Assembly (NCBI GenBank): GCA_944325705.1
Contig: CALVBB010000001.1
Location: 67,223-131,222 of the forward strand
Direction of reading: 5' to 3'
Length of the DNA: 64,000 nt
DNA from: Candidatus Gastranaerophilales bacterium
GTDB lineage: Bacteria; Cyanobacteriota; Vampirovibrionia; Gastranaerophilales; Gastranaerophilaceae
A program made the translations under genes and the position numbers. Shown here piece after piece: positions 12,638 to 13,137 of this stretch (positions within the stretch are counted from its first letter, which is position 1; each line of letters begins with the position of its first letter). The notes under the pieces are model-generated. The model was not told the origin of the DNA. It did not search any database and saw only the letters and a program-made list of their open reading frames with translations.

Positions 12638-12666
12638 ATTATAGTGGAAATATTTTTTTCTGACAA
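12638..12666 (-). promoter_or_regulatory. Candidate sigma70-type promoter of glyA
   Basis: Minus strand reads TTGTCA-N17-TATAAT, with a GTGAGGTG RBS before the ATG at 12617. Confidence 0.6.
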
Positions 12667-12720
12667 TAAGTTCATATTATTTTTACATAATATATGTTAG
12701 GAGTATATGTTCGGTTTCTT

Positions 12721-12877
12721 TTCTTTTTTAGCGGAAAAAAGAAACAGAACCAAAGAAAAGAAAAATCGGCAAAAGAACACAGCGTCGTAAAGCGCCGCAA
12801 AACCAAACGGAAGCAGTTAAATGCTAACGCATTTAACATTTAAAGCAGTGCTATCGCAGCAAGGCTGCACGCACTGC
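12721..12877. other. Three consecutive short perfect hairpins in a GC-enriched intergenic island
   Basis: ttctttttt/aaaaaagaa at 12721-12743. gttaaatgc/gcatttaac at 12816-12837. gcagtgc/gcactgc at 12845-12877, with a nested gcagc/gctgc. Confidence 0.7.
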
Positions 12878-12893
12878 GACCGGTTCCGATTTA

Positions 12894-13078
12894 GCGACCG
12901 CGCAGGAGAATAAAAATTCAACCTAACGGAAAGAACAGCCGGTGTTAAGCGAAACATGTTCAAAAGCAGGTACTGTTTGAGGAACGTATGTGACGAGTTT
13001 ACCTGCTCCGGGTTGAGCTTTTTACATCCGGCTAGTGATTGCAGTTCGAGTTGAATTTTTATTCTCCTGCGCGGTCGC
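12894..13078. repeat. 185-bp palindromic element with perfect 29-bp terminal inverted repeats (MITE/ERIC-like, invertible-switch-like or long-hairpin RNA)
   Basis: gcgaccgcgcaggagaataaaaattcaac at 12894-12922 is the exact reverse complement of 13050-13078. The inner pairings (gccgg.../...ccggc and agcaggta/tacctgct) share the same centre near 12986. Confidence 0.85.
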
Positions 13079-13108
13079 GTTCATTTCCGATAACATATTT
13101 TATGAGAT

Positions 13109-13137
13109 TTGCACATAGAAAAAATACGTTATATAAT
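13109..13137 (+). promoter_or_regulatory. Candidate promoter of alr that would give a near-leaderless mRNA
   Basis: TTGCAC-N17-TATAAT ends 9 nt before the ATG at 13147. No Shine-Dalgarno sequence lies between them. Confidence 0.5.

Follow-up and report, generated by a model that had tools for sequence, protein, structure and literature searches.

The spacer between glyA and alr is enlarged from about 125 bp to 529 bp by non-coding repeat DNA, and a whole-genome search shows that two dispersed repeats, nested one in the other, fill it. The outer one, family B, is a mosaic, MITE-like element of hairpin modules, bounded by terminal inverted repeats (TIRs) and occupying 12686-13104; the inner one, a copy of family A at 12894-13078, stands in the window in place of the centre and the right half, or arm, of B. 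Family A, not described before, is a repeat family in which core and arms play unusually separate parts: at fixed loci the core is under strong purifying selection, and the arms evolve at a near-neutral rate yet remain paired. The explanation that best covers these observations, and that we hold to be probable though far from certain, is one of nested B and A repeats in which DNA exchange from arm to arm maintains the palindrome.

Positions refer to the window, that is, the whole stretch of 64,000 nucleotides analysed; in the other coordinates, C-numbers denote contigs. The genome itself (G000) is a MAG of 1.95 Mb in 44 contigs, 96% complete, from an uncultured gut Melainabacterium; the other G-numbers denote congeners or relatives, of which G005 is the closest congener, with about 94% DNA identity to G000. 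The features of the spacer are as follows.

12638-12666, minus strand: promoter-like site of glyA, TTGTCA-17-TATAAT (11/12 match), native, outside the repeats, conserved in G006, where the site is empty
12686-12706, plus strand: left TIR of the family-B mosaic element (CATAATATATGTTAGGAG...), with the same TIR at the orthologous G005 site
12705-12883, plus strand: left arm of family B, the 'hairpin array' of consecutive hairpin modules (nhmmer)
12709-12750, no strand: B module 1, with its perfect part at 12721-12743; the ends GTTCA...TGAAC are conserved elsewhere and the interior varies with compensated changes
12816-12837, no strand: B module 2, GTTAAATGC-TAAC-GCATTTAAC, found also in the copies on C3, C7, C12 and C25
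12845-12877, no strand: B module 3, GCAGTGC...GCACTGC with the inner hairpin GCAGC-AAG-GCTGC, read from the sequence
12894-12922, plus strand: left arm of the family-A element, whose outer 13 nt (GCGACCGCGCAGG) share homology with the hairpin at the centre of B elements
12923-13049, plus strand: core of family A, an imperfect, rod-like hairpin whose bulges and apical loop (CTGTYTGAG...CGAGTT) are conserved
13050-13078, plus strand: right arm of the family-A element, the exact reverse complement of the left arm
13084-13104, minus strand: right TIR of the family-B element (TTTCCGATAACATATTTTATG), with 1 mismatch to the TIR consensus
13108-13137, plus strand: promoter-like site of alr, TTTGCA-18-TATAAT (10/12 match), native, immediately outside B, present also in G006

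Translation supports the identity of glyA and alr, as do the Pfam labels that identical proteins carry in other assemblies. The promoters that the initial annotation had described as hugging the two genes are indeed there (12666-12638 on the minus strand and 13108-13137 on the plus strand), as are its three hairpins, exactly where it had placed them: that at 12721-12743 has a 9-bp stem and the loop AGCGG, that at 12816-12837 a 9-bp stem and the loop TAAC, and that at 12845-12877 a 7-bp stem enclosing an inner hairpin. The two short ORFs that it reported, starting at ATG 12694 and ATG 12707, exist as well; both are small and basic, other B copies do not conserve them, and a coding role for them was dropped for that reason. 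The comparison with relatives that it had proposed for the orthologous spacer was made with G006 and G005. In the former, about 125 bp separate glyA from alr with both promoters in place, which makes it an empty site, and in the latter a full-length B element, complete with both TIRs, fills the spacer, and A is absent. The arrangement of the window itself was found almost base for base in 8 conspecific contigs from other samples. At the glyA-alr locus the element sits upstream of both promoters and probably acts merely as a spacer.

Two further details concern this locus. A weak promoter-like match, TTTACA-18-TATGTT (9/12; window 12682-12711), lies in the left B TIR and faces the repeats, so that transcription of the hairpin array and the palindrome would start from it if it is active. 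In one conspecific assembly (L121, 844-2061), alr is given as 405 aa, against 373 aa, with a start within the repeat-filled spacer, and this longer N-terminus is probably a gene-calling artefact.

Family B was delimited by its TIRs, which bracket the spacer at 12686-12706 and 13084-13104 and had been missed by the initial annotation. Their 21-bp consensus, CATAAAATATGTTATCGGAAG, bounds B elements at C3:97461-98027, C7:19895-20551 and C25:5024-5578, and marks a right end at C12:13986; the TIR occurs with 0-2 mismatches at the ends of five elements, and the flanks read ...TTTA/CAT...ATG/TAAA... at most ends, the right-hand TA being missing at the window locus and at its G005 orthologue. In the genome, nhmmer finds about 18 hits to the B arm, mostly as inverted pairs forming mosaic elements of 420-700 bp. 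The modular hairpin motifs in variable combinations, with an A-type hairpin as a possible module, liken family B to the BIMEs of E. coli and the BOX elements of pneumococcus, from which it differs in its defined 21-bp TIRs and TA-like flanks, as in MITEs of the IS630/mariner type. No transposase was linked to either family.

The two families are connected by more than their nesting in the window, as the hairpin modules of B share the pattern of A, with conserved ends and compensated interiors. Moreover, G012 contains about 12 copies of a short A variant that covers model positions 31-120 only, and the copy inspected (L016, 1428-1781; G012:C21) is a short variant of the A apical domain within a complete B-type element. 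This variant has the same loop, CTGTCTGAGCGTAGCGAGTT, on a different, compensated stem, and its presence inside B indicates that A-type hairpins can be modules of B mosaics.

For family A, the initial annotation had recognized a 185-bp palindrome with perfect 29-bp arms, and this description holds in full: a repeat finder places the arms at 12894-12922 and 13050-13078, 100% complementary and 127 nt apart, and imperfect pairing continues through the interior about the same centre (AGCAGGTA/TACCTGCT). When the sequence is folded, a check proposed together with that description, both strands are far more stable than shuffled controls, at -92.5 kcal/mol (z = -9.7) and -84.9 kcal/mol (z = -10.3). 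It had also been noted that no second copy occurs in the window, which is correct for the window but not for the genome as a whole, where a genome-wide search gives 17 covariance-model matches to family A (16 full-length and one fragment) beside the arm-length hits of B. The palindrome is one member of a multi-copy family, which excludes a one-off insertion scar.

Every copy contains the conserved, asymmetric core of about 117 nt, to which the window copy adds an 8-nt loop insertion typical of the C1/C6a subfamily, and every copy is closed by a stem of its own sequence, nearly perfect within the copy, 20-34 bp long and worth -20 to -58 kcal/mol. RNAalifold predicts for the family a single rod-like hairpin in which bulges and apical loop are conserved. 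In the 35-sequence model alignment, 94.5% of the cells are paired, against 33-39% in slid controls, and 35 of the 50 pairs show changes on both sides. At 29 non-orthologous loci taken together, pairing of the arms extends to about 29 bp, although their consensus is weak and limited to the inner ~17 bp (TAAAA.AAAAT.T.ACC), which the inner ~17 nt of the left arm in the window fit; the outer ~12 bp are paired in 60-79% of cases, against a background of about 40%, with no conservation of sequence. A coding reading of the core was rejected, the start codon not being conserved and the frame being broken by 1-nt and 7-8-nt indels. An integron attC site, with conserved R and L boxes at its base (RYYYAAC...GTTRRRY), a variable tip and cassette arrays next to an integrase, was likewise set aside on inspection, since family A has a variable base and a conserved tip and its copies are single and dispersed, not in cassette arrays.

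When the covariance model was run on the congeners and on the remaining sampled genera of the family and order, family A proved to be confined to one genus of the Gastranaerophilales ('CAG:484'-type MAGs), with a weak hit in G020 (E = 6.5e-4) as the sole exception; the congeners carry between 0 and 23 copies, and 7 of 15 carry none. When about 186,000 species genomes were scanned for the pattern, true members turned up solely in Gastranaerophilales MAGs, namely 'Brachyspira sp. CAG:484', MGYG-HGUT-02153, two 'Ca. Gastranaerophilales' bins and SI.O36 bin 22, which is G005, and every pattern hit outside this order failed the covariance model. The one hit on a viral contig failed it too, and a viral origin was discarded. 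Within G000, all 16 full copies are intergenic, 13 of the 16 lie 25-91 nt from the 3' end of a gene, and their orientation relative to the neighbouring gene is unbiased (6 same, 4 opposite).

No general partner gene adjoins the copies in G000; pilin-like genes alone recur, at a minority of loci, and the survey of neighbours found no recombinase. Pilin-like genes flank the copies at C8:49508, C3:34741 and C11:42625. A cassette of about 1 kb, made up of a prepilin-type gene (FTLAEVLITLG...) and an A element 3' of it, occupies the same site in G005 (L040, 1458-2490; G005:C44, ~106 kb) and in G009 (L014; G009:C1), and is precisely absent from G000 at C10:64201-64202. Some A copies may have spread through the duplication of such pilin cassettes.

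The different evolutionary regimes of core and arms become apparent in the comparison of G000 with G005. Taking four-fold degenerate sites in the flanking genes as the neutral yardstick, 668 of 2620 positions differ (25.5%), against 1652 of 20394 (8.1%) for all coding sites; the arms of family A, with 138 differences in 638 (21.6%), approach the former value, and the core, with 66 in 1359 (4.9%), lies far below it (Fisher p = 2e-67 against the four-fold sites). This strong constraint on the core, for which a purely selfish or neutral repeat would not account, points to a sequence-specific role. In the arms, 13 pairs in 11 orthologous elements have changed from one Watson-Crick pair to another, where a rough estimate from the observed rate of single changes predicts fewer than one such double-changed pair by chance; in the C3a element, each of the four arm substitutions is compensated and the core is unchanged. 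On the other side stand 77 'broken' arm cells, counted in ungapped register and in part due to indels, and these many single uncompensated changes imply that homogenization or correction of the arms is intermittent. Within the species, variants were too few for a signal of paired double changes in either direction.

The same data could be explained at the RNA level, if family A were a structured ncRNA, either an sRNA or a cis-acting hairpin of the 3'-UTR or terminator-like type, whose stem and core are kept by selection on the transcript; once transcribed, it would form a dsRNA stem of about 30 bp cleavable by RNase III, as in Correia and ERIC. The very strong covariation in every helix, core included, is what such an RNA would leave, and so are the very stable folds and the strong purifying selection on the core at orthologous loci. 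The composition of the mispaired cells in the family alignment, nevertheless, does not favor it, as G·U (26) is no commoner than A·C (31), which argues for a constraint at the DNA level treating both strands alike and not for one on a single RNA strand, with the caveat that, in an element that flips, equal numbers would also be expected of an RNA hairpin functional both ways round. The location of 13 of the 16 copies shortly after a gene, where co-transcription would occur, speaks for an RNA; their random orientation to that gene speaks against it, as does the position of the copy in the window, upstream of the promoters on either side. No promoter or terminator is conserved among the copies, whose flanks are unrelated; half of the congeners do without the family; and the core has been inverted at 5 of 13 orthologous loci with its conservation intact. 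The Rfam scan proposed for the 12690-13090 region gave nothing above chance level: no covariance model overlaps the element in the window at E <= 10, and the sole overlap among consensus-like copies is snoR121, with 24.8 bits against a gathering score of 50 (E = 0.29). Taken together, these data make the ncRNA reading unlikely, and with it the RNase III-processed hairpin RNA that the initial annotation had named among its candidates.

The inversions just mentioned concern the 13 family-A elements that are orthologous between G000 and G005, five of which (C28, C20a, C2b, C3b and C6a) have the core inverted between collinear flanks. At C28, G005, G006 and G008 agree in orientation, which places the flip in G000. 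Within the species the picture is uniform: at the window locus and at three loci flipped between the species, conspecific contigs from independent samples all have the orientation of G000 (8/8, 6/6, 2/2 and 8/8; 24/24 in total), these contigs having been chosen by an identical flanking protein, and thus representing close strains, with orientation read at the consensus level. A metagenome scan with an arm 22-mer for strain-level polymorphism in orientation found nothing. At this consensus level, flipping is slow and is not phase variation.

The invertible switch suggested by the initial annotation is, in consequence, borne out only as far as the inversion between species is concerned. If family A were a programmed inverton, a site-specific recombinase acting at the inner arms would flip the core and so change the expression of a neighbour, which would suit a conserved core lying between inverted repeats, inverted at five of the 13 loci, and the weak consensus kept by the inner ~17 bp of the arms. 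As in the phase-variable promoters of gut bacteria, a segment between inverted repeats occurs either way round; unlike in these, there is no heterogeneity of orientation within the species in the 24 contigs, although three of the four loci differ between species, the core in the window contains no consensus promoter-like site, and the neighbours include no recurrent recombinase candidate, nor any recurrent partner apart from the pilin-like genes. Furthermore, the arm sequences vary between copies, which recombinase sites would not, and most copies lie at the 3' ends of genes. A programmed switch is accordingly considered highly improbable.

The history of the arms was traced at three sites where G005 carries an element and G000 looks 'empty' but keeps the outer 17-21 nt of one arm. 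At two of them, S1 and S4, four and three further congeners, respectively, have neither the element nor the retained arm, from which it follows that the G000 sites are deletion scars, to which the short repeats at the junctions of the 'empty' sites belong; at the third, S5, a truncated piece from the 5' part of the element survives in two congeners. Recent G005 paralogues, whose cores are 97% and 93% identical, have 80-86% of their arms in common, which shows that the arms travel with the element. The S1 and S4 outgroups, the S5 remnants and these paralogues together rule out that the arms are copied from the target flank at insertion. In the window, the outer 13 nt of the arm align with the central hairpin of B (GCGACCG--CGCAGG against GCGACCGACCGCAGG), an alignment that indicates that this stem was extended in situ from local sequence. 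Elsewhere, comparison of G000 C10:61071-61203 with the A-bearing L037 (G005:C44:102942-103093) shows an unrelated-looking 131-bp segment ending in ...TTAGCGAATGGAGTTCCTGACCAAATTTTTAT; this end resembles the 3' end of the A core with one arm and looks like a further partial deletion remnant.

The surroundings of the elements diverge as well. The 20-60 nt just outside the arms differ at 93 of 346 positions (~27%) between G000 and G005, in addition to indels (for example, G000 C3:71150-71560 vs L048 and C20:26040-26400 vs L039), and so diverge far more than the 1.5-kb flanks around them, in which the 700-nt segments are 82-98% identical (96-97% at C3b, 93-95% at C20a). A elements seem to be local hot spots of rearrangement.

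These filled and empty sites bear on another reading, in which family A is an active non-autonomous transposon whose hairpin is the substrate of an HUH/Y1 RAYT-like or other transposase, and whose arms derive from copied target DNA. Such activity would fit the range of 0-23 copies among congeners and the recent G005 paralogues with 97% core identity, but most G000 copies are old, being orthologous with those of G005, and the recent paralogues share their arms, which move with the element. The one arm found in the 'empty' site of all three filled/empty pairs could be taken as a footprint of insertion, were it not that the outgroups show these sites to be deletion scars and not virgin targets. 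As to the enzyme, G005, the genome with most A copies, has a partial Y1 (IS200-like) transposase match at a contig edge (G005:C10:152-361; L117), and fuller Y1 genes occur in G004, G009, G014 and G011, with no link to the repeats shown. G000, in contrast, with its 17 copies, has no match to PF01797 (Y1/RAYT), an absence that is not absolute in a MAG 96% complete, and the matches in 5 of 16 congeners bear no relation to copy number, on which grounds a RAYT/Y1 transposase was rejected as the mobilizer. Neither direct repeats flanking the copies, in agreement with the initial annotation, which had seen no target-site duplication (TSD) at the 185-bp element, nor an autonomous IS partner with matching ends were found. 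An active transposon of this type is very doubtful.

Among the three candidates put forward by the initial annotation, a MITE of the Correia or ERIC kind comes closest, in that family A is a dispersed, intergenic, genus-restricted family, small, non-coding, multi-copy and polymorphic for presence or absence; it does not agree with a MITE in having neither conserved terminal repeats nor a TSD, nor a cognate transposase. The ERIC or IRU sequences of Enterobacteriaceae are imperfect palindromes of about 127 bp that form one rod-like hairpin, strictly intergenic and often located just after genes; they occur in either orientation, are present or absent at orthologous sites among relatives, and are conserved above the expectation for non-coding DNA, and we know of no transposase for them. 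Family A resembles them in size, imperfect palindromy, rod-like hairpin, intergenic location that is often just behind a gene, either orientation, patchiness at orthologous sites, a conservation unusually high for non-coding DNA and the lack of a linked transposase, and differs in its unrelated sequence and phylum. In addition, ERIC copies follow one consensus over their full length, whereas in family A the core alone is shared and the closing stem of ~29 bp is specific to the copy. In-place inversion between orthologues has not, to our knowledge, been described for ERIC.

Similarly, the Correia elements of Neisseria (CREE/NEMIS) are multi-copy palindromes of 100-185 bp, with inverted-repeat ends of ~26-29 bp, long hairpins and a location near genes, in all of which family A is like them; their TIRs, however, are conserved between copies and accompanied by a TA duplication, whereas the arms of family A are not conserved and show no TSD. 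TIRs with TA-like flanks are seen in family B, not in A. With REPIN/REP sequences, family A shares the character of hairpin-forming non-coding repeats, long vertical persistence and halves kept complementary by selection or repair (PMC3116915); the difference is that REPINs have conserved arms, and family A has variable arms around a large, asymmetric, conserved core. Furthermore, REPIN/REP are accompanied by a RAYT, for which G000 has no match.

The preferred explanation, arm-to-arm exchange in DNA, would integrate these features as follows. The mobile unit of family A would be the core of ~117 nt with arms of ~17-20 bp. After insertion, the arms of each copy would drift at a roughly neutral rate, and exchange between them at the DNA level, either through replication template switching inside the quasi-palindrome or through recombination between the inverted repeats, would keep them complementary and even lengthen the stems. 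The same exchange would now and then invert the core between the arms, and would favor deletions of the core together with one arm, leaving the one-arm scar. The conserved core, in turn, may serve as a sequence-specific recognition site for a protein or as a structure acting on DNA; we infer that either is likelier than a discrete RNA or a programmed switch.

Template switching homogenizes the arms of inverted repeats, yields several compensatory changes per event, lengthens stems and flips loops or spacers (PMC5941160, PMC8794818, PMC8604942, PMC13100816). Arm correction, simultaneous compensation, stem extension and spacer inversion, the pattern of family A, are predicted by the quasipalindrome template-switch (Ripley) model (PMC5941160, PMC8794818, PMC8604942), which describes a mutational mechanism, not a family of elements, and refers mostly to short inverted repeats with short spacers, whereas family A has arms of ~29 bp and a spacer of 117-127 nt. 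The combination of perfect, concerted arms, stem extension, spacer inversion and one-arm deletions leads us to infer template switching or, equally, recombination between the arms as the molecular mechanism. The length of the 127-nt spacer in the window speaks against a simple intramolecular template switch, and RecA-type recombination between 29-bp repeats, or some recombinase, could do the same job.

A further, tentative possibility, to which we give a small but real chance, is that the ~117-nt core is a host-selected module working independently of orientation, either as a platform for a protein binding DNA hairpins or cruciforms or as a new class of dsRNA-forming elements of Melainabacteria; the long, paired stem free of sequence requirements would then itself be a functional requirement, and flipping in place would alter the effect on neighbours.

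In summary, the oddly long promoter spacer is accounted for by nested repeat DNA. On the practical side, elements of this kind break MAG assemblies and can mislead the prediction of promoters and sRNAs. In family A, from a little-studied, non-photosynthetic cyanobacterial lineage of the gut, nature offers a clear case in which a constrained core (4.9% vs 25.5%), near-neutral complementary arms and in-place inversion (5/13 loci) can be measured side by side, and in which the footprints predicted for template switching are seen with longer arms (~29 bp) and a longer spacer (~120 nt) than those usually studied. The constraint on its core makes family A a candidate for a DNA or RNA structure used by the host, and the finding would gain in interest if the core has a host function.
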